A DNA stretch of 64,000 bases from Oscillospiraceae bacterium (GCA_009782215.1 WRKO01000005.1:30083-94082), one strand, 5' to 3'; counted from the first letter of the stretch, positions 13,082 through 45,149 are shown. The notes: generated from the letters alone by a model not told the origin. Made by a program: numbers and translations.

Positions 13082-14533
13082 TTACTTGCCGTAGGCGGCG
13101 TCGATGTAATCCTGCATGACCTGCCGCCACTGCTCGGCCAGACCAGACGCCATGGTGGAGCCGTCAAGCAGCCCGCCTATGCCGAAGCGGTCGCCGTCGG
13201 CGTTGCGGACGACCAAGTTGTCCCACATATCAAACTGGGGCTTGGTGCTCATGTATCCGGTCACAAAATCCAGACCGCGCACGTCGTCGCCAAACAGGTT
13301 TTCCACCCAGAGCGCCGCGTCGTCGCGGAGGTCGAGGTCGTAGTTGTACCAGTTGTTGTAATCATAGAAAACCTTGTAAACAATGTGGGCGTCCGGCGTC
13401 CCGATGGGAATCATAAAGACGTTGCCGCTCATGTTGACGGTGTTGTTTGTCTCCCTGTTCCCGCTGGGCCCGATCGGCCACGGCACGACGCGGATGGTAT
13501 AGGGGCAGTCCTCATGCTCGTCGGTGGGGAAGCCCTTGGTGATGCCGTTTCTCTGCGCCAGCCAAGGATACCAGATGAAGAAGGCCTGCTGGCCGGACTG
13601 CCAAAGGTTGTTGTCCCAGTATTCGATGTCGCCGTCCCACGGACGGGCCACATTCTCGGTGTTATACATGTTGTAGATGAAGTCGAAGACCTCAAGGGTG
13701 GCGGTGGCGGTGAGGTTCTCCGTATCCGACACGGCGATGCCGGTGCCGTTGGAAATGAGCAGGGCGGTGAGCAGCGGCACATGGCCTCCGCCCCAGCCGT
13801 AGCGGCTGTCACTGAAGTCGGTCACGCCGCGCATGATGTTGAGCCACGCGTCCCAAGTCCACTGGCCGCTGTCCCACAAGTCCTGCGGGTCGGGCTGGTT
13901 GAACTCGTCAAGCCTGTCCTTGTTGTATCCCAGCATGGGAATCTGGTTGTAGTCAACCGGCGGGGACACCCTGATGAGATAGTCTTCGTCAAGGTTGCAG
14001 ACGTTGAGCGGGGTGAAGACGGTCTGGTCAGTCCAGATACCGTCCTCGGGGTCGGTCGCGTACGCGCTGATGGGCAGGCAGTAGCCGGCCATAACATAGG
14101 GGATGCCGAAGTTGAGATCCATGCAGTAGATGTCAACGTCGGGAGCGCCCGCCATAATCGAGGACGCGATGGATTCCCTCACCCCGTCCCACGTCATATC
14201 GACGAAGTTCAGCTTGACGTTGTACCGCTCCTCAATGGCGCGTATATTGTCCAGCCGCATCTGCGCGGTGACGGGGTTATCCTCCGTGCCCGTGAGCTCG
14301 AGCTGGGCGGAGTCAATGACGTTTGTCTCGGGGTTCCACCATATGCCCACCGTGATGGGGCGGGTGTTGAGGTATCTGTCCGGGTCGTGTGCGGGGCGGT
14401 CGTCGGGGCTTGGCGACGGATTCCCGCCGCCGGGGTCGTCATTGCCGCCGCACGCGGCCAGCACGGCGAACACCATGATAAGGGCAAGAGCCAAGGAAAG
14501 GATACTACGGATTTTCACGTTGCTTACCTCCAT
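13082..14533 (-). CDS. ABC transporter extracellular solute-binding lipoprotein (CUT1/family 1 type)
   Basis: Lipobox LAACGG plus a Pro/Asp linker. Size and Trp/Tyr/Asp-rich composition are typical of sugar SBPs. It is the last gene of the operon with the permeases. Confidence 0.8.
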   Translation of the reverse strand: MEVSNVKIRSILSLALALIMVFAVLAACGGNDDPGGGNPSPSPDDRPAHDPDRYLNTRPITVGIWWNPETNVIDSAQLELTGTEDNPVTAQMRLDNIRAIEERYNVKLNFVDMTWDGVRESIASSIMAGAPDVDIYCMDLNFGIPYVMAGYCLPISAYATDPEDGIWTDQTVFTPLNVCNLDEDYLIRVSPPVDYNQIPMLGYNKDRLDEFNQPDPQDLWDSGQWTWDAWLNIMRGVTDFSDSRYGWGGGHVPLLTALLISNGTGIAVSDTENLTATATLEVFDFIYNMYNTENVARPWDGDIEYWDNNLWQSGQQAFFIWYPWLAQRNGITKGFPTDEHEDCPYTIRVVPWPIGPSGNRETNNTVNMSGNVFMIPIGTPDAHIVYKVFYDYNNWYNYDLDLRDDAALWVENLFGDDVRGLDFVTGYMSTKPQFDMWDNLVVRNADGDRFGIGGLLDGSTMASGLAEQWRQVMQDYIDAAYGK

Positions 14534-14561
14534 TTAATCAATTTTGAAACGCCGTGCGCGG

Positions 14562-16253
14562 TCAGTCGTCCAACTCCCCGCTGGGGTTGGGCGTGTAAAG
14601 GACGAGCTTGAACAGGGTGTATTCCGTGCCGTCGTCCTGAATCCAGAACGCGCACAGCTCATCATAGAACTTATCGGGGTCGCCGTCGCGCGCCCATCTG
14701 GCCATGATGCCCTCATAGCTGATTTGCTCCACGGCCACACGGGGAACTCTGAGATTGTCAACGGTCAATTCAGGGGTGACATATCCGCCCGGCTGGCTGT
14801 CGCCGGTCAGGTTGGCCCAAATCTGGCCGCCCCAGTCAAAGGTTTCCCCGCCAAAGCGCTGGAAGATAAACTGGGTAAACTTTTCCGATTCATAGTACGC
14901 CGTGATGTAAGCGCCGGGGACAATCCAGCCCGGTTTGAAATCGGGCGGGTTTTCATCCGAATGAGCGGTATCCATGCGGAAGAGCTGCACCCAGTTGCCC
15001 GCGGAATACCCGTCGCCCGAGTGGATGTTGAACGGCGTGAGGTCGATGAACTCGTCGTCGCCCATCAGGACGGGGCGGTATTCAATCTCATGGGTGCGCA
15101 TCCCGATGGAGAAGCTCTTAACTTCCAAGGGAGCTTCCCCTTCGTTGCCGCGGTCGCCGATGTTGATGCGGTCAAGATAGGTGTCAAAATCGTCGGTGCC
15201 GAAGGACTCGACGACGTCTTCATAGCGGAACTGCGCGAGGTTGCCGGACAGGTTGACCATAAACGGCTCGACCTTCGCCCAGCTTTGGGGGCCGCCGCTC
15301 CAAGTCTGGAAGATAATTTCGGGGGCTCTGGGCCCGCCGTATGCCACGGTGATGACTGAGCCGGGGACAAAGACGTCGAGGTCGAAATTGTCTCTGTCAA
15401 TCATGCCGGCCTGTCCCCACCCGGAGGATTCGCCGGTCGCGCCGTTGTCGAAGTAGGCGAACCGCACTTCATCTTCGACTTCAAACAGCAGCGACGTGTC
15501 CGCCGCGCCGAAGCCTCTGGGAGCGTCAAAGCTCGCGGAGGTGTCGGCCGGGATCACATTGCCGGCCGCGTCGTAGGCGGCGACAAAGTCAATGATGAAG
15601 TTGGAGGGTTGCGCGCCCGCGCGGTCGGCGGCGTCGCCGCCGGTGCCCTTGCGCAGAACGATGATGTTTTTCGCGCCGACGGCGAAGGTCACGCCCAGCT
15701 CATCCAAATCCGCGTGGATGAGGGTGGGGTTATTCTTCTCCAAGGTAACGGCCCACAAAACCTCGCTCACATCGTTGCCCGCGCCGGTGAAGACATCTAG
15801 GACACCCGAGGCCGCGTAGAAGCTGCCCGGCATATCCAGCCAGAGAAGAATCGAGATGGAGCGGATGTCGGGAAGCCTGTCGCCGTACAGGCTGGAAACG
15901 TCGATGCCCACATAGGGGGTTTTGCCTTCGGTGAGCGTAGCCTTCAGCGCGCTGCCGCCGTTGTGGCTGATAAGCGAAAGCTCGGAGGGGTCGGCGTCGC
16001 CGGGGGTAAGGTTGACGGCGGCAAACTCCATCAGTCCGTCGGAAAAGTCGATGGCGCCCGCCGGTGCTTCGGGAATGGTCACCGTAATGTTGGCGGGAGG
16101 CTCCCAATCAAGGCCGCCGGAGCTTCCGCCGGGGTCGTCCGACGGGGTGCTTGCATCGGGCGATGCCGACGGTTCGTCGCCGCCGCAGGCCGCCAGAAGA
16201 AGCCCCAAGGAGAAAAGGATTGCGAGGAGCAGGGCAATTCGCTTTGTTTTCAT
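14562..16253 (-). CDS. 563-aa lipoprotein of unknown function (several beta-sandwich/CBM-like modules suspected)
   Basis: MKTKRIALLLAILFSLGLLLAACGG lipoprotein signal and a Ser/Pro/Asp linker. The rest is Gly/Asp/Phe/Trp-rich with no catalytic motif I recognise. It lies between a permease and an SBP gene. Confidence 0.6.
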   Translation of the reverse strand: MKTKRIALLLAILFSLGLLLAACGGDEPSASPDASTPSDDPGGSSGGLDWEPPANITVTIPEAPAGAIDFSDGLMEFAAVNLTPGDADPSELSLISHNGGSALKATLTEGKTPYVGIDVSSLYGDRLPDIRSISILLWLDMPGSFYAASGVLDVFTGAGNDVSEVLWAVTLEKNNPTLIHADLDELGVTFAVGAKNIIVLRKGTGGDAADRAGAQPSNFIIDFVAAYDAAGNVIPADTSASFDAPRGFGAADTSLLFEVEDEVRFAYFDNGATGESSGWGQAGMIDRDNFDLDVFVPGSVITVAYGGPRAPEIIFQTWSGGPQSWAKVEPFMVNLSGNLAQFRYEDVVESFGTDDFDTYLDRINIGDRGNEGEAPLEVKSFSIGMRTHEIEYRPVLMGDDEFIDLTPFNIHSGDGYSAGNWVQLFRMDTAHSDENPPDFKPGWIVPGAYITAYYESEKFTQFIFQRFGGETFDWGGQIWANLTGDSQPGGYVTPELTVDNLRVPRVAVEQISYEGIMARWARDGDPDKFYDELCAFWIQDDGTEYTLFKLVLYTPNPSGELDD

Positions 16254-16297
16254 GTTTTTCCCTCTTTCATAGATTTTTTGTCCGGGACAGGGCCGCG

Positions 16298-17281
16298 TTA
16301 TCCTACAATGCCAGACCGCTCCACCCCCTCTATGAACTTTCTTTGCAGAAACACGTAAATGAGAATCATGGGCAATATCATCAAAATAATGCCTGCGTAA
16401 ACATACAGCGCGGAGATGGCGGGGTCGGTAATCCTGTGAATCCCGGCGAGAGAGCTTTGCAGGCTATTCAGCCTTTTCGAGAGAATCCAGTCGTTGCTGA
16501 GGTTGAACAGGTTGGCGTAGAAAAGGTCGTTGTACTGCCACACCAGCGAGAAGATGGTCACCGTCAGGATGGAGGGCATGGCGTTGGGAATCATCACGCG
16601 CACATAGGTATACATCGTCCCCGCGCCGTCCACAAAGGCGGCCTCCTCAATCTCCTTGGGCAGCCCCCGGAAAAACTGGGTGAAAATGTAGATGTACAGC
16701 CCCGACCGCAGCCCGGCGCCGAGCAGCGTCATCATATACATCGGCGTGAGCGTCGTGAGGAGGTTCATCGGCTCCGCGCCGAACAGGGAAAAAAGCCAAA
16801 ACGGGTCAAAGTGCCTGAAGGTCATATAAAGCGGGAGCATAATCGTGTGCGAGGGAATGACGATGACGATGATGACACAGGCAAACAGGAGCTTTTTCAG
16901 GGGAAACTGAAACCGCGCGAACCCATACCCCACCATGGAGCAGACCGCAATCTGGATAACGGTGAGGGAGCAGATATACACCAGCATGTTCCACATGACC
17001 GAGAAATAATTCATCTCGGTAATCGTCAGCCTGTATCTGTCCAGCGTCGGGTTCTGCGCAATCATGTAGACGACGGGGCTGTATCTGTCCTCGTTGGAGA
17101 AAAACGAGCTGACGGCGATGCCGAGCAGCGGCCCGAGAATGACATACGAGATGCCCACAATCAGCGTCAGCCGGAACAGAGACATGAGAAACGACGCAAA
17201 CCAGCGGATCATACGCCGCTTTTCGTTTTGCAGCCGCGTATCCGTATTGAATGCGCGCAGTTTTTGTTTCAAGGATTCCAA
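16298..17281 (-). CDS. Carbohydrate ABC transporter permease (MalG/LplC-like)
   Basis: Six predicted TM segments. EAA-type loop FTQFFRGLPKEIEEAAFVDGAGTMYTYVRVMIP. Confidence 0.85.
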   Translation of the reverse strand: MESLKQKLRAFNTDTRLQNEKRRMIRWFASFLMSLFRLTLIVGISYVILGPLLGIAVSSFFSNEDRYSPVVYMIAQNPTLDRYRLTITEMNYFSVMWNMLVYICSLTVIQIAVCSMVGYGFARFQFPLKKLLFACVIIVIVIPSHTIMLPLYMTFRHFDPFWLFSLFGAEPMNLLTTLTPMYMMTLLGAGLRSGLYIYIFTQFFRGLPKEIEEAAFVDGAGTMYTYVRVMIPNAMPSILTVTIFSLVWQYNDLFYANLFNLSNDWILSKRLNSLQSSLAGIHRITDPAISALYVYAGIILMILPMILIYVFLQRKFIEGVERSGIVG

Positions 17282-17335
17282 GATAGCACTCCTCCCCTGT
17301 GTCTTGCCCCGCGCGCGTCCGGCGGGGCGGGCCGT

Positions 17336-18265
17336 CTAGTTGTGATAGTAAACAAATTTGGAAATCAGCCAGCCGGAGATGCCCAGAATCCCGCAGACGC
17401 ACACCATGCTGACAAGACTGAACACGGCGCCCAGCGAGTAGTTGAGTTCCCTGAACATGGTGTCATACGCCTCCTGCAGCACCCGGCTGTTGACAAACGA
17501 ATCCAGCACCGTATAAACCATATTGGTGACCAGCAGCGGCGACACCATCGGGAATGTGACCTTCCAGAATGTTTCGTAGGGCGTGGCGCCCTCGATTTTC
17601 GCCACCTCATAGAGCGACGGGGAAATGGACTGGAGGGCAGCAAGGAAGATGATGATTTGCACGCCCGACATGGTGATGACGTAGTTGATGCGCGCCACGG
17701 CGCCGAGGATGTAGTCAAGCGCGGCGTTCGGAAGCCCCAAATCCCGCATCAGCCCGACGTAATAGCCGATGCTGACGCCTCCGCCGCTGCCGGCCGACTC
17801 CAGCATGGCGGCAGGCGCGGGGCTGGTGCCGCCGAGCATCATGGCCCTTACCATTTCCAGCGCCCCGAAGATGGCGGGGGCGTTGAGCAGAACCGGCATG
17901 AAGAAGATGGCGCGCGCCACCGTGCGCCCCTTGAACTTTTGGTTGAGCATGATGGCGATAAACAGGCTGAAGAAGATGATAAGCGGGATGTCAACGACCA
18001 TGCTGATGATGGAATCCACCAAAAATTGGTTGAAGCGCGGATGCTCGGTGAACGCCTTGACAAAATTGTCAAGGCCGGTGAAGCTCCGCGTATAGCCCAG
18101 CCCTTCGATGCTCGTCTCAGAGACGGCGAAGAGAATGGTCTCATAAAGGCTGCGCGCGTAAAAGACCAGAAACCCGAAGATGAACGGGGACACAAACAGA
18201 AGCCCCGTGATGGCGCGGCGGCGCGACAGCGTCATGCCCTTCCCGCGCTTTTTCGCAACTGTCAT
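17336..18265 (-). CDS. Sugar ABC transporter permease (MalF/LplB-like)
   Basis: Polytopic. EAA loop LAALQSISPSLYEVAKIEGATPYETFWKVTFPM. ATG 18265 overlaps the stop of the upstream 868-aa gene (ATGA). Confidence 0.85.
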   Translation of the reverse strand: MTVAKKRGKGMTLSRRRAITGLLFVSPFIFGFLVFYARSLYETILFAVSETSIEGLGYTRSFTGLDNFVKAFTEHPRFNQFLVDSIISMVVDIPLIIFFSLFIAIMLNQKFKGRTVARAIFFMPVLLNAPAIFGALEMVRAMMLGGTSPAPAAMLESAGSGGGVSIGYYVGLMRDLGLPNAALDYILGAVARINYVITMSGVQIIIFLAALQSISPSLYEVAKIEGATPYETFWKVTFPMVSPLLVTNMVYTVLDSFVNSRVLQEAYDTMFRELNYSLGAVFSLVSMVCVCGILGISGWLISKFVYYHN

Positions 18266-20868
18266 GCCGCGACCCCCTCTCTGACCTCAAACCCTTTCGC
18301 GGCCACGGCGACGCCCTCGTAAGACAGCTCCGCGTCCGTGTAGTTAACAAGGATTTGGACGCCGTTGTCATAGGTGACTGCCCGCAGGCCGTCCGGCGTA
18401 ATCTCATGGCGGACGATTACGCTGCCGCGCACGCGGCTGAGGACGGGGTTAACGGTGTTGTATACCTCAACGGCGACGCCGGTCCAGTTTTGGTAATGCG
18501 TGCCGAAGTAATGGTTGAGGCCGGTGTATTTCATCTCGCTGGCCTCCTCATAGCTCAGCGTAAACCGCGGGGAAGCGCCGAACTCAATCAGCCTCAGCAC
18601 GGAGTCGGTCTCGTCAAGACCGTCGCTGCGGTTAAACGCGTTGCCCGCGTAGGGGATATACCCGTGAACGACCATTTGGTAAAACGGCACCTCCGCGTCA
18701 ACGACGAGGAAATCGCTGTGCATGAGCGGAACGTTGATGAGGTCGTCCGCCGCATACAGCGCGTAGGCGTTGCCGCCGGAAACCATCACATCCATCCCTG
18801 TGCCGACGATTTTATCCATCTGCGCCGTCACAATCGAAAGGGCGTGTTCGCGGTCGATAAACTCTGTGCGCTTGCGGTCGGAATGAAGGGAATCGCCCAA
18901 GTCGCGCAGGGAAATCCCGGTGACGTCGTAATCCTCAATCCGTTTCACAAACGCGTCCGCGTAGCGGGGCAGGAATTTCGGGCTGACGAGCGCCTGCCAG
19001 CGCTCGGGATATCTGCCCCCAAACACCTGATAGCAGTCGGGACAGGTCTGCTCCGCCCACCACACGGTCATCCCGCCGCCGTAATAGCGCGAGTTTTCCA
19101 TCGCCCAGTTATACCGTTTGGCGCGGTAGGGGACGTTCTGGAAGATGACGTCGGCGTAGAGCTTGCCGCCCTGCTCTTCCAGTCTGGCGCCCAGCGCCTC
19201 AAGCTCCCTCTTGCTCCCTAATTGCCGCACGGGGTTGATTCGGTTGGCCGCGTCATGGTAATACCCCCGGTTAAACCAGCCCTGATAGTTGACCACCTGA
19301 TTGGAAATGCCGCTCGCGCTGAAGATGTCAAGAATCTCCTCCGCCTGCGCGTAGGTGGTCATCGGGATGATGCCCTGATACTGGATGGACAGGGCGAATT
19401 TTGTGCCCAAAACAGCCCCGATCATGTCCAGATAAAGGGGAATGTCCCCCTGCGCCACCCGGTCTCCCAGCACGCCCTCGCGAATCAGCCGCTCGCGGTA
19501 ATACCGCGCCATGCCGGAGTAGCCTTCATATTCCTCCGGCAGAAAGCTGTAGCGCACGGTGAGGTTGGCGACATAGAAATCGGCTTCGACGACGGGCATT
19601 TCGCCTTCGCTCCCGGTAACGCCGAACATCATCAAAGAGCCGCTTCCGCGGATGATAAACGAAGCCGCCGCGCCGTTGTACGACGTCCCCTTCCCGGCAA
19701 TAAACGCGGATATCTGCGCGAAGGACTGCCCTTCCTCTATTTGCGCGAAGACGGTCTGCCCGCCCTCCTTATGGAGTCCGAAGACCGGCAGCCGCACCAT
19801 TTCCGTGTTGCCCAGCACGATAAAGTCATTGGTAACCCTGTCCGTCCCGTATACAAACTGGCTGTAATCGTCCGCCCACGTCCTGCCGTTGTTGAAGTCA
19901 ATCAGGGAGCCGGAGCCGTTGGGAACGAAAAGATACCCGTCCTCGTCCGTTCCCGCCGCGCCGAAAAAGCGCAGGACATGGATTTTGTCAATTCGGGCGC
20001 CGCCGTTTTCCACAATGCGGGAGGTGGGGACGCTCACCACCAGCTTGTCGCCCTCCAGCCGGTATTCCAGCGGGACTTCAACGCTGATGACCACCGCGCC
20101 TTCCACGTTGGTCTCCATCGAATCCCGCAAATAATCCTCCTCGGTGTAGCCGATGGCCTCAAGCATGGCCAGCAGGCGGCGGATGGTGGCGGCGCCCGCC
20201 GCGCCGGAGCGCAGCGTCCAAACGCCTTCGGGGGCGTCCTCGGCCTCCGTATACCGCATCTCAAAGTTCTGGCGGTCTGTTTCATCCTCAAGCTTGTCAA
20301 GGATGTCGTCCAGCCGGTTCCGGTAGAGGTAAATCGGAACAATGCCGGTGGACACCTGCAGGTTGCCCAGCGTATAGATGTAACGCACGCCGCCGTTGAT
20401 GCCCTCCACCGCCACCTGACTGCTGCCGAACCGTATGGCGTCTTCGTAGGCGAGGAACTGCCCCGGCGTACTCCGCGCGTTGAAATACTCCACCGTCAGC
20501 GGGGATTTCAGCAGGCTTTTGTTGCGGCTGGAGGCAAGCGGGTCGTCGTCCGCGTCCGGCGGGCAGGCGTATGTCGTCAGCCCCGTGCGTTTGTCATATA
20601 CCGCCACGTTGGTGGATTCGGTGTCCGTATACATCTCCAGCTCGGGGCTTTCCGCCACAAGCACCATGCCGGGCACATTCCCGCCGCCCGGAAGCGGCGC
20701 GAAGCGGCGGCCTTCCTCATAATGCGTTCCGCGCTCCGCATCAAGATACTTTTCATACCCGCTGTACGCGCGGAAATAGACAAAGACGTATCCCTGATAA
20801 ACAAGGACGATAAAGGCGGCGATGCCTATCAGCCCTAACAGCAGCTTTGTCCCTAATTTCATCGGCAT
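18262..20868 (-). CDS. 868-aa N-terminally membrane-anchored extracytoplasmic protein, DUF5696-like (glycoside-hydrolase-like barrel suspected)
   Basis: One TM (LLLGLIGIAAFIVLVYQGYVFVYF). The large ectodomain carries stretches I associate with DUF5696 proteins (ELEMYTDTESTNVAVYDKRTG..., GYLFVPNGSGSLIDFNNG..., PLYLDMIGAV..., YQGWFNRGYYH). This is a recollection-level assignment. Confidence 0.55.
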   Translation of the reverse strand: MPMKLGTKLLLGLIGIAAFIVLVYQGYVFVYFRAYSGYEKYLDAERGTHYEEGRRFAPLPGGGNVPGMVLVAESPELEMYTDTESTNVAVYDKRTGLTTYACPPDADDDPLASSRNKSLLKSPLTVEYFNARSTPGQFLAYEDAIRFGSSQVAVEGINGGVRYIYTLGNLQVSTGIVPIYLYRNRLDDILDKLEDETDRQNFEMRYTEAEDAPEGVWTLRSGAAGAATIRRLLAMLEAIGYTEEDYLRDSMETNVEGAVVISVEVPLEYRLEGDKLVVSVPTSRIVENGGARIDKIHVLRFFGAAGTDEDGYLFVPNGSGSLIDFNNGRTWADDYSQFVYGTDRVTNDFIVLGNTEMVRLPVFGLHKEGGQTVFAQIEEGQSFAQISAFIAGKGTSYNGAAASFIIRGSGSLMMFGVTGSEGEMPVVEADFYVANLTVRYSFLPEEYEGYSGMARYYRERLIREGVLGDRVAQGDIPLYLDMIGAVLGTKFALSIQYQGIIPMTTYAQAEEILDIFSASGISNQVVNYQGWFNRGYYHDAANRINPVRQLGSKRELEALGARLEEQGGKLYADVIFQNVPYRAKRYNWAMENSRYYGGGMTVWWAEQTCPDCYQVFGGRYPERWQALVSPKFLPRYADAFVKRIEDYDVTGISLRDLGDSLHSDRKRTEFIDREHALSIVTAQMDKIVGTGMDVMVSGGNAYALYAADDLINVPLMHSDFLVVDAEVPFYQMVVHGYIPYAGNAFNRSDGLDETDSVLRLIEFGASPRFTLSYEEASEMKYTGLNHYFGTHYQNWTGVAVEVYNTVNPVLSRVRGSVIVRHEITPDGLRAVTYDNGVQILVNYTDAELSYEGVAVAAKGFEVREGVAA

Positions 20869-20877
20869 GTCACCCCC

Positions 20878-21510
20878 CTATCCTCTAAGCGAAAACTCGG
20901 TGTAGACGCTAAAGAAGAAGCCATACACCTGATTGAGCAAATCAAACAGCAGCAGCGCGAGAAAGATGATGAGAAACATGGCTACAAGCGTGATGACGAG
21001 GGTAATGAGGGTTTTCAGCAGCGTGTAGTTATGCACCGTCATAATCCCCATCAGAATTAAAATGGCCGTCCACGCGACGCCGAAGCCGAGGATGACGGTG
21101 TAGAAGACCTCCTCGTTGGCCGCCAGCACATTGGAAATGAGAATAGCGGGGATATAGGTCAAAATGAGCGGCATGAGCGAATAGCCCGTCACAACGAGGA
21201 TGTCCTTGAGCCGCCCCTCGCCGTTCATCAGACAGGTCACCGACCAGTTGCCGACGGAGAAAAGGCCGAACAGGAGAAACACGCTGACCAAATCCGTCAG
21301 CCCGTTGACGGAGCGCGGGTCGACCGTGTTGACGATAAAGCCCGCGAAAATTTTGTCGAGGGTGAAGCACAGGCTGAACGCGAAGACGGTGACCAGCGCC
21401 AGCGGCACGCTACCCTGCTCACGATGCCGGATTTCGTAGAAGCTGTCGACGGGATTTGTCAGGGTGCGCCGAAAGTAATACAGATTGTCACGCGTAAAAT
21501 ACTTAGTCAT
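20878..21510 (-). CDS. Yip1-domain integral membrane protein
   Basis: The N-terminal cytoplasmic part MTKYFTRDNLYYFRRTLTNPVDSFYEIRH is followed by five hydrophobic helices, as in bacterial YIP1-family proteins. The ATG at 21510 overlaps the upstream gene by 8 nt. The first 27 codons of the listed ORF look non-coding. Confidence 0.6.
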   Translation of the reverse strand: MTKYFTRDNLYYFRRTLTNPVDSFYEIRHREQGSVPLALVTVFAFSLCFTLDKIFAGFIVNTVDPRSVNGLTDLVSVFLLFGLFSVGNWSVTCLMNGEGRLKDILVVTGYSLMPLILTYIPAILISNVLAANEEVFYTVILGFGVAWTAILILMGIMTVHNYTLLKTLITLVITLVAMFLIIFLALLLFDLLNQVYGFFFSVYTEFSLRG

Positions 21511-22990
21511 CGGCCAGCAAGTCTCCTTTCCTTCCGCCTTTGCCCTTAACGGTGTTCCATATGTATAACGCCAGCGCCGCGACCACCGCAACGGTGAGGA
21601 TGGCGCCGAGGTTTTCCTTCAAAAGGTCGTTGCGGTATCGCTTGAACGCCACGGAATAATAGGTGCGATCCATCCCCAGCCTGAGATGCTTCATGGCTTC
21701 GCTGTTGTTGCCGTCGGTCAGGTAGGCCTTGCCGATGCCGACATTGGCAAGCTCAAGGTTTTCGTTGATGGCAAGCACCTGCCGCCAGAGATCCACCGCC
21801 AGCCGTTCGTCCCCGTCAAACCGCAGCCCGACGGCCTCGTTGATCAGCCTGCCGTATTCCGTTTCGGCAAAAAGCATGATCTCCTGCCGCCCCGAATCCA
21901 AAACCAGCAGCTTGTCCCCGGTGTGGGCCATAGCGGCGGGCGTCCTGAACGTCCCCACCTGCGCGCCCATCCCCCCGAAAATATAGAGGAGGTTTCCTTC
22001 AAAGTCATAGGTGAAAATGCGCCCGCGCCTTGAGCAAAGGATGGAGTAAAGGCCCTTGTCGCGGATGATGATATCGACGATGTACGACGGCCCACTGTAG
22101 GTGCCCGCCCCTCTGGGCATCCAGTCCAAATCGCCCCCGACATTCCCGTTCGCCCCTGTTTTGATGACGTCCTCGCCCTTGGGGTTGAGACGGAAAGCCG
22201 CCTGTTCCCCCAGCGGGTCGATGCAGGACGCGTACACAAAGCCGTCGTCGTCCACGTCAACGCCGGTAAACTCGGTGGGGATGAACAAAATGCCAACCTC
22301 CCGCTGCCGTCTGGAGGACAGAGCTCGCCATACCCGCTGCCACACGGAGATTTGCACGTTGATGGTGCCGAAGAAGCTCATAAACTCGCCTTCCGGGGAA
22401 AACACCATCAGCCCTTGAAACACATTCCGCGAGATGACATAGATGCGATCCGCGTAATCGACCGCCACCTTGAGCGGGGTGAACACATACTCTGCCGCGA
22501 ACATGTCGCTCTGCGGGTTTTCAATAATCTGCACTGCGGAAAGCCCCGTTTCGTCCAGCACCACAATCCGCCGGTTGAGGGAGTCGGCGATGTAAATGAG
22601 ACCCCGGTCGGAAACCGTCACCCCGAAGGGCCGGTTGAAGGAATCCGGCGTCCCATTGTTGTCAAACCCCTCAATGACCATAAGAGCCTCGGTCATTTCC
22701 GCGTTGACGATGACAACGCGGTCGTTGTCGGTGTCGGCCACAAGGAGCCGCCCGTCCGGGGCGATGCTGATGTCCTGCGGATTGCGGAACTCCCCGATGT
22801 TCAGGCTCAGCCCGGTCACCGAGCCGGCGGGGATATAGGGTGCGGGCGTGTATTCCACGTATTCGCGGTAGTTGTACGTATAGGAATCGTACGGAACATC
22901 CACGCTGGCCAGCGCCGCGGGCGCGGCGCACAAAAACAGCATCATCGCGGCCGCCGCGACGACCGCCGGTTTCAGAAAGCGTTTCATCAC
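21503..22990 (-). CDS. Secreted NHL-repeat beta-propeller protein with TPR-like C-terminal region and C-terminal TM anchor
   Basis: Signal peptide MMKRFLKPAVVAAAAMMLFLCAAPAALA. Repeated NHL-type blades (PQDISIAPDGRLLVADTDNDRVVIV, PFGVTVSDRGLIYIADSLNRRIVVLD, ...). A helical-repeat segment follows (AVDLWRQVLAINENLELANVGIGKAYLTDGNNSEAMKHLRLG). C-terminal TM LGAILTVAVVAALALYIW. Confidence 0.65.
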   Translation of the reverse strand: MMKRFLKPAVVAAAAMMLFLCAAPAALASVDVPYDSYTYNYREYVEYTPAPYIPAGSVTGLSLNIGEFRNPQDISIAPDGRLLVADTDNDRVVIVNAEMTEALMVIEGFDNNGTPDSFNRPFGVTVSDRGLIYIADSLNRRIVVLDETGLSAVQIIENPQSDMFAAEYVFTPLKVAVDYADRIYVISRNVFQGLMVFSPEGEFMSFFGTINVQISVWQRVWRALSSRRQREVGILFIPTEFTGVDVDDDGFVYASCIDPLGEQAAFRLNPKGEDVIKTGANGNVGGDLDWMPRGAGTYSGPSYIVDIIIRDKGLYSILCSRRGRIFTYDFEGNLLYIFGGMGAQVGTFRTPAAMAHTGDKLLVLDSGRQEIMLFAETEYGRLINEAVGLRFDGDERLAVDLWRQVLAINENLELANVGIGKAYLTDGNNSEAMKHLRLGMDRTYYSVAFKRYRNDLLKENLGAILTVAVVAALALYIWNTVKGKGGRKGDLLADD

Positions 22991-22997
22991 AGCCCCC

Positions 22998-23912
22998 CTA
23001 CTCTTTAATCCCGGATGTGGTCATGGTTTCCAAAATGCTTGACTGGCAGACAAGGAAGAAGGTAATCGGGATAGCGGCGAGGACAAACAGCACCGCCATC
23101 GCCTCTCCCGCGCGGCGCGGCCCGCCCGCGGCGATATGCTGCATGGCGAACTGCAAGGGCTTCAGCTCCTCGCTGCGCAAAAACAGATAGCCGGTGTTGC
23201 CCCACATCAGGTTGAACTGGAAAATCATCAGCGTCAGCCACGCGGGCTTGACGTTGGGCATGATGATTCTCCAAAACGCCCGGAACTCTCCCGCCCCGTC
23301 AATCCTCGCGGACTCAATCAGCGAGTCGGGAATCTGCTCCATAAACTGCTTCATCAGATACAGCCCGATTCCGTAGCCCCACGCGGGGATGATCAGGGCC
23401 AGATAGGTGTTGTTGATACCGAGGAAGGAGATGATGACATAGTTGGGGATCTGCGTGACCTGCCATGTAAACATCAGCGAGAGGATGACGAGCGAAAACA
23501 ATAGCTTCTTGCCGGGGAACTTGTGCTTGGCCAGCGGATAGGCCGCGAGGGAGGCGACGATGACATGCCCGAACACGCTGAAAACCATAATGACGGCCGA
23601 GTTGAGGATATACCGCGAAAGAGGCACCCACGTCTCGCTCATGGAGATAAACAGGTCGGTAAAGTTTTCGGTGGTGGGGTTCCGCACAAAAATGCGCGGC
23701 GGGAATTGAAAGATTTCATCCAGCGGCTTGAGGGCGTTGTTGACGACGATAATCAGCGGCATAACCATAAACGCGCCGCACAGCCCCATGAACACAAACA
23801 GCAGCACGTTCCCCGCGCGCGAGCGGTTGAGCTTTCTCTCGCGGCGAAAGTTTTTTTGGAAAAATGTCTCCTTGACCACAATCGGGCCGTCGGAATTCCT
23901 GACCTTGACCAT
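22998..23912 (-). CDS. Carbohydrate ABC transporter permease (MalG-like)
   Basis: Six TM segments. EAA loop MKQFMEQIPDSLIESARIDGAGEFRAFWRIIMP. Confidence 0.85.
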   Translation of the reverse strand: MVKVRNSDGPIVVKETFFQKNFRRERKLNRSRAGNVLLFVFMGLCGAFMVMPLIIVVNNALKPLDEIFQFPPRIFVRNPTTENFTDLFISMSETWVPLSRYILNSAVIMVFSVFGHVIVASLAAYPLAKHKFPGKKLLFSLVILSLMFTWQVTQIPNYVIISFLGINNTYLALIIPAWGYGIGLYLMKQFMEQIPDSLIESARIDGAGEFRAFWRIIMPNVKPAWLTLMIFQFNLMWGNTGYLFLRSEELKPLQFAMQHIAAGGPRRAGEAMAVLFVLAAIPITFFLVCQSSILETMTTSGIKE

Positions 23913-23914
23913 GC

Positions 23915-24844
23915 TCAGTTGCCCACCCTTCTCAATAAGCGCTGTACCAGCCGGTTTGTGCCCACCATCAGAATGAACAGCACCGTGGCGATGGCGGAGG
24001 CGTAGCCCATTTCAAACCGGATGGTGCCGTTGTCTATGAGATGCGTGACAATGGTGGAGCCGGAATAGTTCACCGACACGGGCGAGCCCGGCGGATCCCC
24101 GGCCAGCCAGAGGGAGATGTCCGCGATGGCGAACGAAGCGGTAATCTGCATGACCGCGCCGAACATAAGCTGAGGCTTCATGGCCGGCAGGGTGACAAAC
24201 CAAAGCTCCTGCCAGCGGTTTCGGATGCCGTCGATGGCCGCCGCCTCATAGAGGGATTTGTCGATGGTCTGCAAGCCCGCGATGAAGGCGAGGAAGCCCG
24301 TCCCGAGCGAGAGCCATAGCTGCACGACGATGAGAAAGGGCAGGATGTACTTGGCGTCCCGCATCCACAGGACAGGTTCGTCCATAAACCCCCACCGGAG
24401 CAAAAACCCGTTGAGGATGCCGTAGCGGTCGCCGGTGAAGATGATGGTCCAGATGAAAAACACCTGCCCGGAAATCGACGGCGCGTAGAAGACAAGGGTG
24501 AGGAAGGCGCGGAGCCGCCCCTTGAATTCATTGATAATCCACGCGAACAGCAGGCACAGCACATAGCTGAGCGGGCCGGTGATGATGGCCAAAATCATCG
24601 TGTTTTTCAGCGCAATCATAAAAATGTCGTCTTCCAGCAGCAGCTTTAGGTAGTTCGCCCAGCCGATAAACTGCGGCGCCTCCAGCATGTTGAAGTAGGT
24701 CAGGGAGATAAACAGGGAGGCGGCGACGGGCAGAATGGTGAAGGTTGTGAAGATGAGGAAATACGGAGCCATCATCATGTATGAGACTTTGTTTTTCGCG
24801 ATGATGGAACCGAGCGACGGCGCGTCGTTCTTCTGCTTTACCAT
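23915..24844 (-). CDS. Sugar ABC transporter permease (MalF-like)
   Basis: Polytopic. EAA loop IAGLQTIDKSLYEAAAIDGIRNRWQELWFVTLP. Start is the internal ATG 24844, 4 nt after the upstream stop. Confidence 0.85.
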   Translation of the reverse strand: MVKQKNDAPSLGSIIAKNKVSYMMMAPYFLIFTTFTILPVAASLFISLTYFNMLEAPQFIGWANYLKLLLEDDIFMIALKNTMILAIITGPLSYVLCLLFAWIINEFKGRLRAFLTLVFYAPSISGQVFFIWTIIFTGDRYGILNGFLLRWGFMDEPVLWMRDAKYILPFLIVVQLWLSLGTGFLAFIAGLQTIDKSLYEAAAIDGIRNRWQELWFVTLPAMKPQLMFGAVMQITASFAIADISLWLAGDPPGSPVSVNYSGSTIVTHLIDNGTIRFEMGYASAIATVLFILMVGTNRLVQRLLRRVGN

Positions 24845-24848
24845 TGGC

Positions 24849-27824
24849 TCATCTCCCTTCCCTGCCGCTGTAAAGCGGCAATCCCAATTCCTTGCGCTTG
24901 AAGTCAATTTCATCGTTAATCAAGATGACCTTGTCAGTCAGGGCCTCCCTCGGGGACTCAAAGACGTCGGCGGTAGCGCCCCTGACCGAACGCCCCGTGA
25001 CCACCGCGTAAAACGCGTTGTTGATGTTGCGGAAGCTGAAATAGCCGCCCGGCACCTGCGGGATGCCGCGCACATGCTCAAACTGGGCGGTCAGCGCCTG
25101 ATAGTCGGCCACCGGCCACGGGAGCAGGCTGAACGCCTCGATGTTGGCGGACGGATGCCGGGCCGCCGGCCCCATCAGGCTTTCCATTTCACGCCCGAAC
25201 AGCGTCTGCGTCTCAACCGAAGTCCACCATTTGAGGAATTCCCAAGCCTGCTCGGGACTCTCGGTGTCGTTCATCATAATGGTGGCGGAGCCGTAGCTGC
25301 CCACGGCGCGGTTGACCGAGCCGTCCGGCATAACGGTTCCGGGCACGGGGGAGAAGCCCCACAGCCCCTTGATGTCCGGCGCGGAGATTTGCAGGGTGTT
25401 GTAGAATAAGTAGTCCTGAATGATGATGGGGGTTTCGCCGGTGCGGAAACGCTCCTCCGGGCTGGTGTCCTTGTCCAGCTTGTATTCGGTGTAAAACTCC
25501 GTGTACATTTTGAAGGCGCGGAAGGCTTCGTCGCTGTCCAGCGCGGAGCGGGTGGCGTCCTCGTTGTAATACGCCCCCTCGTTCTGGTAGAGAAGCATGG
25601 AGAAAATCGGTTCGCGGGGCAGCATCCCCAGCTCCATCTCGTGGTTGGCCAGCACAGCCAGCGCGATTTTCATCTCATCCCATGTGTCGGGTACGTCCAG
25701 CCCGATTTCCCGCAAAATATCCTTGCGGTAGAACATCATCGGGAAGGTCTGGGTTTCCGGCAGGGCAAACACCTTGCCGCCGTAGGAATACGCCTCCATG
25801 ATGCTTGGGCGGAACCGCCCCAGCGTTGCGGTCAGGTCGTCAAACCCCGTCAAATCGTATACGGCGTTGCGCAAACCGAAGTTCATCGGCAGGTCAAACG
25901 GCACCTGCACGGCCACGTCCGGCCCCTGCCCGGCCAGCGTGGCTTGAAGGAGGGTGCTCATGTCCATCATCATCACGTTGACGTTGATGCTGTGGATCGG
26001 CGTGAACGTCTCGTCAATCAGCGTCTTGATAACGCTGGCTTGGTCGCGGCCGGAGCCAATCCAGAGCGTGATGGTGTCGGAGCCCTTCGCGTCGGACACA
26101 TTGCCGATTTGGTTGTAGTCGATAATGAACGAGTAAAACAGCCGCCGCATCTCAAACCAGAAGCGGTGGAAAAAGGAATTGCCCTCCGCCTTGGGCGCTT
26201 CGCCCGCCGGATGGAAGGAAATCATGTCGAGGGCAATCGGCTGTTCCACGGCTTGGGTAAGCCATGTGCCGCAGGCCCTGATGTTGACGCGGAACGAGGA
26301 CACCTGCCTCGGGAACTTCTCCGGGTCTTCAATCAGCTCGGTGAGGTTGGTCACCATCGTTTTCAAAACGCGCTCGCGGTCGCTGCGCCTGCCCGCCGCC
26401 TGCTCCAGCATATCCAGCGCCCGCTGGAGCCGGTCGCGCGCGTCCGTCATCTCGGCCCGCAGACCGGGAAGGCTGCGGTTGATTTGATAGTCGCGGTGCC
26501 GGTCGGGGGCAACGCCGGTCAGCCGGATAACCCTGCGGTATATGGCGTTTAGCTGGTATACCGCGGCGCGCACATCGCCGACGGCTTCGCCGAGACTGCC
26601 CAGCACCGCCTCCATCCGCAGCGTGTTCCGCCCTTGATTGAGATAGATTTTATACGGCTCGCCGTCGTGGCTGGCCAACGTCTCCATCCGCCATGTCTGG
26701 CGGTGGACAAAACCGTAATCCTCAAACTCCGCGAAGGGAACGACGCCGTTGACGCTGATTTTCCTCGACATATAAATGCCCCGCGTAAAGTTCTGCCTTA
26801 CATGCACCGACAGTTCATACAGCCCCGCCTCCGGCGCGTCGAAGTCCCATTCAATCCACTGTCCCGCCGACCGCCACGCAAACCCGCCGATGGTGTTGTT
26901 GAGCAAATGCCGCGGGCTGGCCGGGTTGACCGCCGGGGAGGACTGGTCCTGCACCGGATAAAGCATCTGCGAAGACGTCCTCGCGGCGTTCTGCGCCTGA
27001 AAGGAAACGGCTTGGGCCGCGTCCCGCGCGCCGGCGCGCTCCCATCCCGCCAGCGCCTCGGCATAGGACGGAGGATACGGCTCGTTGCTTATCATAAGGC
27101 TGTGAATCAGCATGGGCTCGCGCAGGGAAAAGAAGGCGACGGTGTTTTTGCCCTGCTCAAAATAGAGGGAGAGCCTTCCGGTGAAGTAGCCTTCGCTGTC
27201 ATAGAGGTAGCTGTCCATCCATTGGGGTATCTCAACCATCGTGGGCTTGATGTCGTTTCCTTGGTTGTCCTTCTGCCAAACCGGCTCCAAGAGCCCCGCC
27301 GACGTCGCCTCAACGGCCGGGCGGTTGCTCCATACCCGCTGGAACTCAAGGGTCGCCAACTCGCGGTAGGGAAGGACTCCGTTGACAAAAAGGCTCCGCT
27401 GGATGGCGGAACTTTTGCCCGCGATGGGGAAATAGCGTATGGAAAGGTCATACAGCCCGCTCTGCGGGACGTCGATTTCAAGTTCAATAACGGAGTCCTC
27501 CTCCGTCAGCACGCCCTCAAACCCCCGCCCGTCTTCGCCGGTCACGGCGATGATTTGGGGCGCAGTCTCCGCGCCGCCCGTTTCGTAGCGGGCGAAGTCC
27601 GCCGCGCTGTACTCGGCGCGGACGTCGGGCCGGTTGACCGGATTCCGCCTGAGGTATTCGCTGTACGGAGGAATGGACTCGTCGATGGTATGAACCTCGA
27701 TGATGTCTTGGTATTCCTCGCGCGACATGTCCCCCGGCGCATATCCGCGCGCCGGGAGCGCCCAAAACAGCGCAAACGCCATAAACACGGCGGTTGTTTG
27801 CTTTGCTCTCCGTTTCCAGACCAT
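24849..27824 (-). CDS. 991-aa extracellular protein: two CBM-like modules + helical linker + C-terminal family-1 solute-binding domain
   Basis: Signal or anchor sequence. Two modules carry the CBM6/35-style segments GLYDLSIRYFP...LFVNG and GLYELSVHVRQ...ISVNG. A predicted helical region spans about aa 420-540. The last roughly 450 aa have sugar-SBP character (TITLWIGSGRDQ..., ...FSPVPG...). Confidence 0.65.
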   Translation of the reverse strand: MVWKRRAKQTTAVFMAFALFWALPARGYAPGDMSREEYQDIIEVHTIDESIPPYSEYLRRNPVNRPDVRAEYSAADFARYETGGAETAPQIIAVTGEDGRGFEGVLTEEDSVIELEIDVPQSGLYDLSIRYFPIAGKSSAIQRSLFVNGVLPYRELATLEFQRVWSNRPAVEATSAGLLEPVWQKDNQGNDIKPTMVEIPQWMDSYLYDSEGYFTGRLSLYFEQGKNTVAFFSLREPMLIHSLMISNEPYPPSYAEALAGWERAGARDAAQAVSFQAQNAARTSSQMLYPVQDQSSPAVNPASPRHLLNNTIGGFAWRSAGQWIEWDFDAPEAGLYELSVHVRQNFTRGIYMSRKISVNGVVPFAEFEDYGFVHRQTWRMETLASHDGEPYKIYLNQGRNTLRMEAVLGSLGEAVGDVRAAVYQLNAIYRRVIRLTGVAPDRHRDYQINRSLPGLRAEMTDARDRLQRALDMLEQAAGRRSDRERVLKTMVTNLTELIEDPEKFPRQVSSFRVNIRACGTWLTQAVEQPIALDMISFHPAGEAPKAEGNSFFHRFWFEMRRLFYSFIIDYNQIGNVSDAKGSDTITLWIGSGRDQASVIKTLIDETFTPIHSINVNVMMMDMSTLLQATLAGQGPDVAVQVPFDLPMNFGLRNAVYDLTGFDDLTATLGRFRPSIMEAYSYGGKVFALPETQTFPMMFYRKDILREIGLDVPDTWDEMKIALAVLANHEMELGMLPREPIFSMLLYQNEGAYYNEDATRSALDSDEAFRAFKMYTEFYTEYKLDKDTSPEERFRTGETPIIIQDYLFYNTLQISAPDIKGLWGFSPVPGTVMPDGSVNRAVGSYGSATIMMNDTESPEQAWEFLKWWTSVETQTLFGREMESLMGPAARHPSANIEAFSLLPWPVADYQALTAQFEHVRGIPQVPGGYFSFRNINNAFYAVVTGRSVRGATADVFESPREALTDKVILINDEIDFKRKELGLPLYSGREGR

Positions 27825-27845
27825 CTGGCAGCCCCCTCGTTATCG

Positions 27846-29384
27846 TTAATCTCGGATGGGATAGGCGGTCAAATCCGGCAGTTCGTCCAGCGTAACGACC
27901 AAATCATGGTGATAAAAATGCAGCAGCATCTCCTTTTCGATATACCTCTCGGAGACGAATTCGCCCGTCCAAGGAATGGCAAAGCCCCACATCGCGCCGT
28001 CGCGCATACAGAGGTCGGGGTCTGGGAGGAAGCCCGATTCGCTCAAAACCGCCATCTTGGGCGGGGAGGTATACGCGGCGGCTTCCAAAAATTTCGCGGC
28101 CTGCGAGGTGTAAACCCTCTCGCCCGGATAGATGTCCTCGCCAATCAGGTCTACCGTTTCGCCGCCCGGATACCAGTCCGCGTGCTGGCCGTTCCAAACC
28201 CAGATAAGGTTGTTCAGCCCGTGCGCCTCCGTCAGTCTCTCATACATCAGGTTCCATAGCTTTATGTAGGCGTCCGGCCCCGACGCCCCCCACCAGAACC
28301 AGCCGCCGCTCGCCTCGTGGAGCGGTCTCCACAGCGCCGGCACGCCCGCGTCCTGCAATCGTTTAAGCTGTACGGCAATGGCGTCAATGTCGCTTATAAG
28401 CAGCTCCAAGCCCTCCGCGTCCCGTCCGTCCATTATGGCCGCGAGGTCAAGCCCTCTGACCGCTTGGGTGTAAAACCCTCTCCACCAAAGCCAGTCGCCC
28501 TCATCAACGAGGTATTTCGTCGGAGCGTTCCAATGCCAGCAAAGGGTGACAATGGCGCCGTTCTCCCACGCCTCTATGGCGGGCTCCACCGAGATGCGCG
28601 TGTCCCCCCGTTCGGCGCGGGAGGGGGAATACCCCATCAAATCCAGCCCGATAACCGCCGGATATTTGCCGGTCTGGCTGTGTATGGCGGCGCTTTCGGA
28701 GCCAAACAGCCCTCCGTCGCTCTGCTGCCCGGCGAGGATGACCTTGCCGTAATGGTCGGCAAGATAGCTCATCAGCCGCTTGGCGCCGTCGCCCGCGTTC
28801 GTGTTGGAAAGCCTTGCGGACACATCGTAAATGGACGCGTCAAGAACGGGGGAGGGGGACACCGTCAGGCTTTCCAGACGGATCCAGCCCCAATATTTCA
28901 GCAGCCCGACCGTATGCTCGCCCGCCTCCATATACACGCGGGGGAGAACGGAATCGTCAAGCTCGGGGCTGTCGGTGACAAGAAGACCGACCTGCTCCCC
29001 GTTGACCAGCACGACGTTTTCTTTATACCCCCCGATGGAAAGGGAGCGGAAGATCAAGTCATAAAACCCCGGCTGCGGGACGCCGACGGTAAATACGCAC
29101 ATATCCCCGTCGTTTTCAAAGCCCTCAAGCGCGCCGCTCCCGGTGAGACGGACGCCGCCGACTCTTTCCGCGTCCTCCGCCGGATACAGGACGGGCAGGA
29201 CAGGCAGAGCGGGCGGGGAGGGCAGGGGAGACGGGTCGGGGGATTCCCCCTGCGCCGAGGGTTCCCCGGAGGGGGGAACGGGAGACGCTTCCGGCTCGGA
29301 AGGAGTCGCGCCGCACCCGGAAAAGAGGCATAACAAAAGCATAACCAACAGCGGCGCCAAGCGTGCGGAGCCGGGACAATTCAT
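27846..29384 (-). CDS. Glycoside hydrolase family 26 (beta-mannanase-type) lipoprotein with N-terminal CBM-like module
   Basis: Lipobox LFSGC and a Pro/Ser linker. CBM-like PGFYDLIFRS...VLVNG. GH26 catalytic signatures IVTLCWHWNAP and LWRPLHEASGGWFWWG. Confidence 0.8.
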   Translation of the reverse strand: MNCPGSARLAPLLVMLLLCLFSGCGATPSEPEASPVPPSGEPSAQGESPDPSPLPSPPALPVLPVLYPAEDAERVGGVRLTGSGALEGFENDGDMCVFTVGVPQPGFYDLIFRSLSIGGYKENVVLVNGEQVGLLVTDSPELDDSVLPRVYMEAGEHTVGLLKYWGWIRLESLTVSPSPVLDASIYDVSARLSNTNAGDGAKRLMSYLADHYGKVILAGQQSDGGLFGSESAAIHSQTGKYPAVIGLDLMGYSPSRAERGDTRISVEPAIEAWENGAIVTLCWHWNAPTKYLVDEGDWLWWRGFYTQAVRGLDLAAIMDGRDAEGLELLISDIDAIAVQLKRLQDAGVPALWRPLHEASGGWFWWGASGPDAYIKLWNLMYERLTEAHGLNNLIWVWNGQHADWYPGGETVDLIGEDIYPGERVYTSQAAKFLEAAAYTSPPKMAVLSESGFLPDPDLCMRDGAMWGFAIPWTGEFVSERYIEKEMLLHFYHHDLVVTLDELPDLTAYPIRD

Positions 29385-29440: not shown

Positions 29441-29469
29441 ATTTTAATACATTCTTAACAAATTGTCAA
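29441..29469 (-). promoter_or_regulatory. Near-consensus sigma-A promoter of the GH26-led operon
   Basis: Minus strand TTGACA (29469..29464), 17 nt spacer, TAAAAT (29446..29441). It sits in the only AT-rich gap here, about 57 nt upstream of ATG 29384. Confidence 0.55.
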
Positions 29470-33051: not shown

Positions 33052-33140
33052 GTCTGCCGTTCCTTTCCGGTTTTTGTAGGGGCGGTTTCCGGCCGCCCGC
33101 GGCCGAGGAGAGCGCTATCATAAAAAAGGGGGCTTTGCCT

Positions 33141-36108: not shown

Positions 36109-36125
36109 ATGCCAGACATTTTTTC

Positions 36126-37814: not shown

Positions 37815-37878
37815 TCTTTTTCCTCCTGTTTTGTCATTTTATTTCCACGCGTTCCGCGATGAAAATACGCTCTGAATT

Positions 37879-38811: not shown

Positions 38812-38833
38812 GCCGCTCCCCCTCTCCCGAAAC

Positions 38834-45140: not shown

Positions 45141-45149
45141 GGGTTCGTC

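Follow-up and report, generated by a model that had tools for sequence, protein, structure and literature searches.

What do three genes of no assigned function do in the middle of a run of sugar transporter genes? The question is raised by a 64,000-nucleotide stretch of DNA from an Oscillospiraceae bacterium (GCA_009782215.1, WRKO01000005.1:30083-94082; the window, in whose coordinates all positions are given). An earlier note, made from this DNA alone, had described a trio of minus-strand genes between two pairs of ATP-binding cassette (ABC) permease genes, encoding an NHL propeller protein, a Yip1-family membrane protein and an 868-aa protein resembling Pfam family DUF5696, and had proposed that the three form a membrane-associated complex which acts with the permeases and in which the last is a cryptic glycosidase. 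All three open reading frames (ORFs) are present as claimed, at 21503-22990, 20878-21510 and 18262-20868 respectively, and each of the four flanking permeases matches BPD_transp_1. As a unit the trio stood only in part: its genes are real and co-occur, but the functional unit is larger, an 11-gene cassette that includes a GH26 (glycoside hydrolase family 26) mannanase. Eleven closely packed ORFs occupy the minus strand at 13082-29384, encoding in the direction of transcription a protein with GH26 and a family 35 carbohydrate-binding module (CBM35), solute-binding protein 1 (SBP1), permeases 1a and 1b, the NHL, Yip1 and DUF5696 proteins, permeases 2a and 2b, a lipoprotein with a CBM65 module, and SBP2. 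We regard it as an even call that these eleven ORFs, from 29384 to 13082, form a single operon for hemicellulose capture and import, and hold in the same balance the proposal that the trio is the invariant middle module of that operon, working by the mechanism set out below.

The case for a module rests on its conservation. Relatives of the DUF5696 protein found by the scan, with one genome per species, came to at least 573 stretches, of which the best 80 were examined for synteny, and the presence of NHL and Yip1 genes was judged in the 72 loci whose upstream sequence runs to 2.3 kb or more. Gene order and strand are kept in all 80 loci, as far as each contig extends, and NHL and Yip1 accompany DUF5696 in 72/72 testable loci, so that the lack of conserved co-occurrence which the earlier note had named as grounds for abandoning its proposal is clearly not what these genomes contain. 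The 80 loci have identities of 42-68% and come from Oscillospiraceae, Lachnospiraceae and other Clostridia, their carriers including Butyrivibrio, Roseburia, Acetatifactor, Marvinbryantia, Anaerobutyricum, Mobilitalea, Limiplasma and the cultured Anaeromicropila herbilytica. Conservation goes beyond the trio and takes in the entire cassette; more distant DUF5696 clades, outside the best 80 loci, may stand in other contexts. A literature search returned no paper that describes the cassette (related titles and abstracts were judged irrelevant), and neither the fixed two-importer architecture, the NHL-Yip1 pair nor a membrane-anchored GH129 relative lacking the acid/base residue was found in the searched literature. 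The general type, in which Gram-positive bacteria combine a surface endo-enzyme with ABC import for the use of a glycan, is known; the two-importer and trio architecture is a variant of it without precedent in that literature.

The trio is also tied to its neighbours at the level of translation. The sequence ATGACTAA at 21503-21510 (8 nt), with an AGGAGA ribosome-binding site before it, contains both the NHL stop codon and the Yip1 start codon, and ATGA at 18262-18265 contains the DUF5696 stop and the start of permease 2a. Both overlaps, which the earlier note had reported, can be read directly in the sequence, and they recur in 63/76 related loci for NHL/Yip1 and in 60/80 for DUF5696/permease 2a. 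They show translational coupling, which is not proof of the fixed stoichiometry previously drawn from them, and conserved coupling of NHL to Yip1 and of DUF5696 to permease 2a would aid co-assembly. These data also bear on whether the trio is functionally independent of the transporters, sharing only their operon and serving, for example, cell-envelope maintenance. Such independence would sit easily with the fact that contacts between trio and permeases are purely inferred, but the place between the permease pairs is invariant across families at the identities given above, the stop-start overlap with permease 2a is conserved, and no other context for the trio occurs among the 80 loci. We consider it very improbable.

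Of the three proteins, that of the DUF5696 gene (18262-20868) gave the clearest evidence of ancestry. It matches PF18952 at 627 bits (E 4e-188), as against a gathering threshold of 25.6 bits, over residues 244-860 and model positions 2-612 of 612. It has one N-terminal transmembrane helix (5-33) with lysines N-terminal of it, and such positive charges place the body of the protein outside the cell; hydropathy and the AlphaFold2 model agree and show a type-II membrane-anchored ectoprotein, as the earlier note had described. The model (predicted local distance difference test score, pLDDT, 85.7; predicted TM-score, pTM, 0.85) begins with beta-sandwich domains, continues with a (beta/alpha)8 barrel (about 476-810) and closes with a further beta-sandwich at the C-terminus. 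A Foldseek search for the glycosidase-like barrel that the earlier note had anticipated placed GH129 first, with ZgDagB best (5opq, E 8e-30) and NagBb next (5wzn-5wzr, about 1e-25; 5wzn E 3e-25; TM-score on target 0.70-0.73, 5wzr 0.73), followed by GH101 at about 1e-17, GH36 at about 1e-13 and GH31 at about 1e-12. All of these fold matches are retaining alpha-glycosidases, mostly for galacto-configured sugars.

The closest two are characterised enzymes of GH129. NagBb, the alpha-N-acetylgalactosaminidase of Bifidobacterium bifidum (5wzn), shares the beta-sandwich, barrel and C-terminal sandwich with DUF5696, as does ZgDagB, the alpha-1,3-(3,6-anhydro)-D-galactosidase of Zobellia galactanivorans (5opq, 8rzk), whose three-domain layout has been described (PMC5698469) and whose domain order equals that of DUF5696. 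A GH129 profile, made from 50 sequences obtained by exhaustive search and matching NagBb at E 1e-235 and ZgDagB at E 3e-59, was aligned by hhalign to the DUF5696 family with Prob 99.14% and E 4.7e-19 over 505 columns, covering residues 260-853. The two families have a common (Q/D)GW..GY motif in strand beta-2. Other comparisons found little: a direct HMMER search of PDB sequences with the family profile gave only E 0.11 to NagBb, a profile cropped to residues 560-800 returned only chance matches from the PDB (nsp8, phycocyanin), and scanning either half of the protein against Pfam at E <=10 brought up no GH family other than DUF5696. Profile alignment and the predicted fold together show that DUF5696 is homologous to GH129 over three domains. 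Moreover, metagenomic fragments that are 83% identical to NagBb (P0241, P0243, P0244, P0245) score 57 bits against PF18952, well above its cutoff. Taken with the profile homology, these scores make 'DUF5696' effectively the Pfam home of GH129, and its label of unknown function is out of date; the view of DUF5696 as a family without function thus no longer holds. The same fragments also match PF12905 (GH101) and PF19773 (DUF6259). Neither the DUF5696 protein nor the Yip1 protein has a family in NCBIfam, and the literature search found no paper on DUF5696 or PF18952.

There are nevertheless marked differences from GH129. Identity is only about 12%, and the DUF5696 protein has about 200 extra N-terminal residues, a membrane anchor and an extracytoplasmic location, in contrast to NagBb-type representatives of about 610-650 aa. 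The GH129 signatures HHAPY and YHDC are replaced, and the acid/base glutamate is absent, S697-G698 standing in its place. The context also differs, being mannan import here and mucin or carrageenan for GH129.

The NHL protein is exported in the manner that the earlier note had predicted, in that hydropathy and AlphaFold2 agree on a signal peptide, a six-bladed propeller at 36-376, TPR-like helices at 378-459, a transmembrane helix at 461-484 and a short basic tail. Its ORF (21503-22990, minus strand; Pfam NHL PF01436, E 6e-12) is real, but the database start is the ATG at 22987, giving 494 aa, and not the GTG at 22990 that had been assumed. The model (pLDDT 84.7) shows six four-stranded blades over residues 36-376, and Foldseek relates them to the NHL domains of TRIM71, TRIM2 and Brat and to the sensor domain of PknD, with TM-scores of 0.76-0.82. 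PknD of Mycobacterium tuberculosis (PDB 1rwl) is similar in having a six-bladed NHL propeller outside the membrane and a single transmembrane helix, but is joined to a cytoplasmic kinase, whereas the protein described here has a TPR-like stalk and only about 12 residues in the cytoplasm, without a signalling output of its own. We considered a role as sensor and rejected it for the lack of a cytoplasmic output domain, and for the same reason favour a scaffolding or binding function for the propeller on its TPR stalk. An NCBIfam scan of the protein gave only a sub-threshold match to ScyF. One could instead make the NHL protein the catalytic member and suppose that the trio carries out lactone or ester hydrolysis unrelated to glycoside cleavage, as might be read from homologues that have weak precomputed matches to PF08450 (SGL) and bear the names 'gluconolactonase', 'sugar lactone lactonase YvrE' or SMP-30-like. 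This is hardly to be expected, however, as the window protein matches only the NHL repeat in Pfam, its best structural relatives are the ligand- or protein-binding NHL domains already named, with no lactonases, and its invariant residues belong to the repeated NHL structural motif.

The Yip1 protein (20878-21510, minus strand) matches PF04893 at 59.6 bits (cutoff 28.6; E 4.7e-16) over model positions 2-172 of 173, and a hydropathy scan finds five hydrophobic segments, in agreement with the five-helix membrane protein of the earlier note. The motifs P.D..YEIRHR..GS and GNWS.TCLM.GEGRLKDI, at cytoplasmic and loop positions, are conserved in 80 sequences. The family had been called essentially uncharacterised in bacteria, and this has to be corrected: according to PMC4887032, which cites Yamada et al. 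2012, Bacillus subtilis YknW is a Yip1-family subunit that modulates assembly of the YknXYZ ABC transporter. Like the protein described here, YknW is small and polytopic, has a Yip1 domain and is encoded together with an ABC transporter, a likeness that consists in the shared Pfam family. The partners are different: YknXYZ, a MacB-type exporter that includes a membrane-fusion protein, gives protection against SDP toxin, while the partners suggested here by conserved adjacency are sugar importers of the binding-protein-dependent kind, together with an NHL-TPR protein and a GH129-like ectoprotein. By analogy with YknW we propose that the Yip1 protein may be an in-membrane adaptor for the single-pass anchors of NHL and DUF5696 and for the adjacent permeases.

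What the importers carry is indicated by the enzymes around them. The first cassette gene (27846-29384, minus strand) encodes a lipoprotein endo-beta-1,4-mannanase with CBM35 and GH26 domains (Pfam GH26 8e-63, CBM35 2.7e-13; lipobox FSGC), which matches PaMan26A, a CBM35-GH26 endo-beta-1,4-mannanase (PDB 3zm8), at E 1e-98 over both binding module and catalytic domain; its remaining PDB relatives described as GH26 enzymes are all mannanases. Near the other end of the cassette is a 563-aa lipoprotein with a CBM65 module (14562-16253, minus strand; CBM65_1 5e-28, residues 272-370; lipobox LAAC), which gives a weak PDB match to the CBM65 of EcCel5A. Clustering of the proteins encoded in the flanks of the 80 loci gives GH130 mannooligosaccharide phosphorylase (33 loci), DUF624 (29), LacI (29), GH5_4 endoglucanase (23), GDSL esterase (10), CE4 (6) and 2-epimerase (3), and in an independently gene-called locus from mouse gut the cassette is followed 3' by DUF624, LacI, GH130 and GDSL esterase genes. 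Mannanase, glucanase, CBM35, CBM65, phosphorylase and esterases are together best fitted by acetylated (galacto)glucomannan, and a beta-1,4-linked hemicellulose of this kind is most likely the substrate. The cassette thus has what marks a Gram-positive beta-mannan locus, namely an endo-beta-mannanase and binding-protein-dependent importers, with GH130 and esterase genes in the flanks of related loci.

The flanking GH5 proteins group with GH5_4 broad-specificity endoglucanases and xyloglucanases. In L017 and 22 other loci the GH5_4-type gene lies directly 3' of SBP2, with E 5e-120 to CelD (8ghx). Because this gene follows the cassette in 23/80 loci, it suggests that backbone fragments containing glucose are what the second importer takes up. 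A further step would be to assign xyloglucan or mixed beta-glucan to the second half of the cassette and to see in DUF5696 a debranching enzyme akin to an alpha-xylosidase. The founding module of the CBM65 family binds beta-glucan and xyloglucan, and it is to the CBM65 of EcCel5A that the module here is matched; the PDB relatives of the GH5_4 proteins in the 23 loci include xyloglucan-specific endoglucanases, and GH31 is among the fold matches. Set against this, almost every locus whose flank reaches far enough has the GH26 mannanase as part of its cassette, no gene is commoner in the flanks than GH130, and the closest folds are galacto-specific (GH129, GH101, GH36) with scores far better than that of GH31; GH5_4 enzymes and CBM65 also act on glucomannan. 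We therefore judge xyloglucan or mixed beta-glucan to be an improbable target and retain acetylated (galacto)glucomannan.

The cassette can be compared with other Gram-positive beta-mannan loci, such as that of Roseburia intestinalis (La Rosa et al. 2019). That locus reportedly comprises an extracellular GH26, an ABC importer, LacI, intracellular GH130, acetyl esterases and an epimerase, and is said to have a single importer and intracellular debranching by GH36, without NHL, Yip1 or DUF5696 proteins. On that description it resembles the present cassette, with the flanks of its relatives, in GH26, ABC import, LacI, GH130, esterases and epimerase, and differs from it in that the cassette has two importers with the trio wedged between them.

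From these data the following mechanism can be proposed. The surface lipoprotein GH26/CBM35 endo-mannanase would release oligosaccharides, and DUF5696, at the outer face of the membrane beside the translocons, would process or hold alpha-linked side chains, presumably alpha-1,6-galactosyl or alternatively alpha-xylosyl, before hand-over to the binding proteins. Neither the Yip1 protein nor the NHL propeller on its TPR stalk would be catalytic. Yip1 would serve as an in-membrane adaptor, as YknW does for YknXYZ, and would keep the single-pass anchors of NHL and DUF5696 beside permease pair 2. By hydropathy and AlphaFold2, all members of the trio have an extracytoplasmic body or are integral membrane proteins.

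Several observations, the first of them at the active site, weigh against this proposal. In GH129 the nucleophile is an aspartate at the end of beta-4 (NagBb D435, ZgDagB D486) and the acid/base a glutamate at the end of beta-5 in the motif S/T-E, and the GH129 profile conserves both (NagBb D435 in YLDVF and E478 in SSEE, with which ZgDagB E517 aligns). The acid/base position aligns, with moderate confidence, to S697-G698 in the segment V-S-G-G-N at 696-700, where none of 37 sequences has a carboxylate; no conserved aspartate or glutamate occurs at 694-707 in these 37 DUF5696-family members. ZgDagB E531 aligns to I711. The nucleophile maps ambiguously: hhalign pairs NagBb D435 with T650, with low confidence at beta-4, an ungapped offset scan shows no preferred register, and when a single NagBb-like fragment was used instead of the profile, the hhalign probability was low and the registers unstable. 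The paired carboxylates that the earlier note had proposed to look for were accordingly not found, and its cryptic glycosidase is borne out in ancestry and fold but not in this respect. There are also points beyond the active site. Contacts between the trio and the permeases are pure inference, and in the window itself GH130 and esterase genes do not adjoin the cassette. An extracellular exo-glycosidase would free monosaccharide outside the cell, and characterised Firmicute mannan loci of the Roseburia intestinalis type are said to avoid this by debranching inside the cell.

One response to the active-site data is that DUF5696 is a pseudo-glycosidase, which keeps the GH129 fold and a sugar cleft and, without catalysis, serves as a membrane-tethered glycan platform feeding both binding proteins, concentrating oligosaccharides much as the surface glycan-binding proteins of Bacteroidetes do. 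The replacement of the acid/base glutamate by Ser-Gly-Gly in every family member would be explained, as would the isoleucine in place of ZgDagB E531 and the alignment of the GH129 HDC aspartate to Gly736, and the cassette already has many modules that bind without catalysis (CBM35, CBM65, the extension at the SBP1 N-terminus). On the other hand, the barrel still has several invariant carboxylates on its catalytic face (D656, D664, D724, E762) and DUF5696 is conserved as strongly as the permeases. The catalytic set of this superfamily can, moreover, move: in ZgDagB the catalytic Asp202 is supplied by an N-domain helix of the partner subunit (PMC5698469). A wholly non-catalytic DUF5696 is in our view possible but doubtful.

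The invariant residues on the catalytic face comprise D573, R594, R655-D656, S663-D664, R667, R673, N700, Y702, D724, E762 and K780, many of them at the C-terminal ends of barrel strands. Where the predicted beta-4 ends, after the strand at 651-654, there is no invariant acid other than D656, in GISLRD, which is the obvious candidate nucleophile. D343, at the start of an N-domain helix, is also invariant and recalls ZgDagB Asp202. Elsewhere in the N-terminal domain, conserved acids lie on or beside helices, in GYTEEDY with D245 and in Y340..D343. By analogy with ZgDagB, D245 and D343 may reach the active site of a dimer partner. As the GH129 acid/base glutamate is absent, the active site of DUF5696 appears to have been remodelled, and if the protein hydrolyses it would use another proton donor, for which D343, D664, D724 or E762 would be candidates alongside D656 as nucleophile. 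Catalysis by DUF5696 is plausible, and our reading is of a site that is remodelled but probably functional, whether for hydrolysis or for binding only. A more ambitious extension would join the trio and both importers in a single supercomplex of the membrane, comparable in a Gram-positive setting to the 'utilisome' of Bacteroidetes, with Yip1 as the in-membrane hub that would dock the NHL-TPR scaffold and the GH129-derived ectoprotein, either an enzyme with a new catalytic solution or a receptor, directly onto the ABC translocons. We offer this tentatively, and think it unlikely.

The remaining genes of the cassette encode two CUT1-type importers, each a set of solute-binding protein and permeases. 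SBP1 (24849-27824, minus strand) is a secreted protein of 991 aa (SBP_bac_8 5e-17, residues 622-875) whose PDB matches are sugar-binding proteins only. It is unusually long, with an N-terminal extension of about 570 aa and a binding domain from about 580, and its residues 85-149 weakly resemble the CBM35 of the adjacent GH26 protein (blastp E 0.001). It may be a binding protein fused to carbohydrate-binding modules. Permease 1a is MalF-type (23915-24913, minus strand; BPD_transp_1 1.8e-12), its real start being probably an internal ATG near 24844, and permease 1b is MalG-type (22998-23912, minus strand; BPD_transp_1 3.7e-14). On the far side of the trio, also on the minus strand, are permease 2a (17336-18265; BPD_transp_1 4.3e-07) and permease 2b (16298-17281; BPD_transp_1 5.5e-13), and the cassette ends with SBP2, a lipoprotein (13082-14533, minus strand; SBP_bac_1 1.7e-08; lipobox LAAC) for which no PDB relative was found. 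A recent duplication of one importer was considered and rejected: permease 2a is only 27% identical to 1a and 2b only 27% identical to 1b, and the pairs are thus ancient paralogues. No ABC ATPase gene was found among the scanned large ORFs of the window; CUT1 importers of Firmicutes usually lack an ATPase gene of their own and share an MsmX-type ATPase. Just 5' of the GH26 start is a sigma-70-type site (29441-29469, minus strand; TTGACA-17-TAAAAT, 11/12 matches), which by sequence and fitting position is a candidate operon promoter, the total of promoter-like sites in the region being no greater than the shuffled expectation.

Most related cassettes contain a gene for a DUF624 (YesL-like) membrane protein between GH26 and SBP1, with a median gap of 744 nt across 57 loci, and a second DUF624 gene often follows SBP2. 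In contrast to L081-L083 and most of L001-L080, the gap between GH26 and SBP1 in the window is only 21 nt (27825-27845), so that the DUF624 gene is missing there.

Elsewhere in the window, a UxaE-like ORF (29490-31253) exceeds the Pfam model by about 110 residues at its N-terminus and overlaps a GH43 ORF on the same strand (30776-31741); either the starts need to be re-called or a frameshift is present. A third, separate sugar ABC system at 34045-39808, with a solute-binding protein (36126-37814) and permeases (37879-38811 and 38834-39808), adjoins a 687-aa protein with a weak GH65-N-like match and an FGGY kinase and belongs to a different sugar locus; a divergent AraC regulator (33045-34043) lies beside it. 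At 41361-45257 is a 1298-aa protein with three SLH domains and a Listeria-Bacteroides repeat, which is probably cell-surface or S-layer-associated.

The three central genes of the operon have no described function in the searched literature, and their broad role in hemicellulose uptake is unsurprising. Among Lachnospiraceae, Oscillospiraceae and other Clostridia, however, the number of species-level genomes with the cassette is several hundred or more; they come from the guts of humans, mice, ruminants, rabbits and other animals and from anaerobic digesters, and the carriers are the butyrate-producing fibre degraders that interest diet-microbiome work most. The label 'DUF5696' conceals a characterised CAZy family, and GH129-like matches in Clostridia should be read with caution before they are taken for mucin-degrading alpha-N-acetylgalactosaminidases. 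If DUF5696 is active, it would represent a new GH129-related specificity with a non-canonical acid/base. The supercomplex, if true, would give bacterial Yip1 its first role in nutrient uptake and define a new functional subfamily of GH129, and if Yip1 and the NHL-TPR protein are importer assembly factors they would constitute a new class of ABC-importer accessory proteins.

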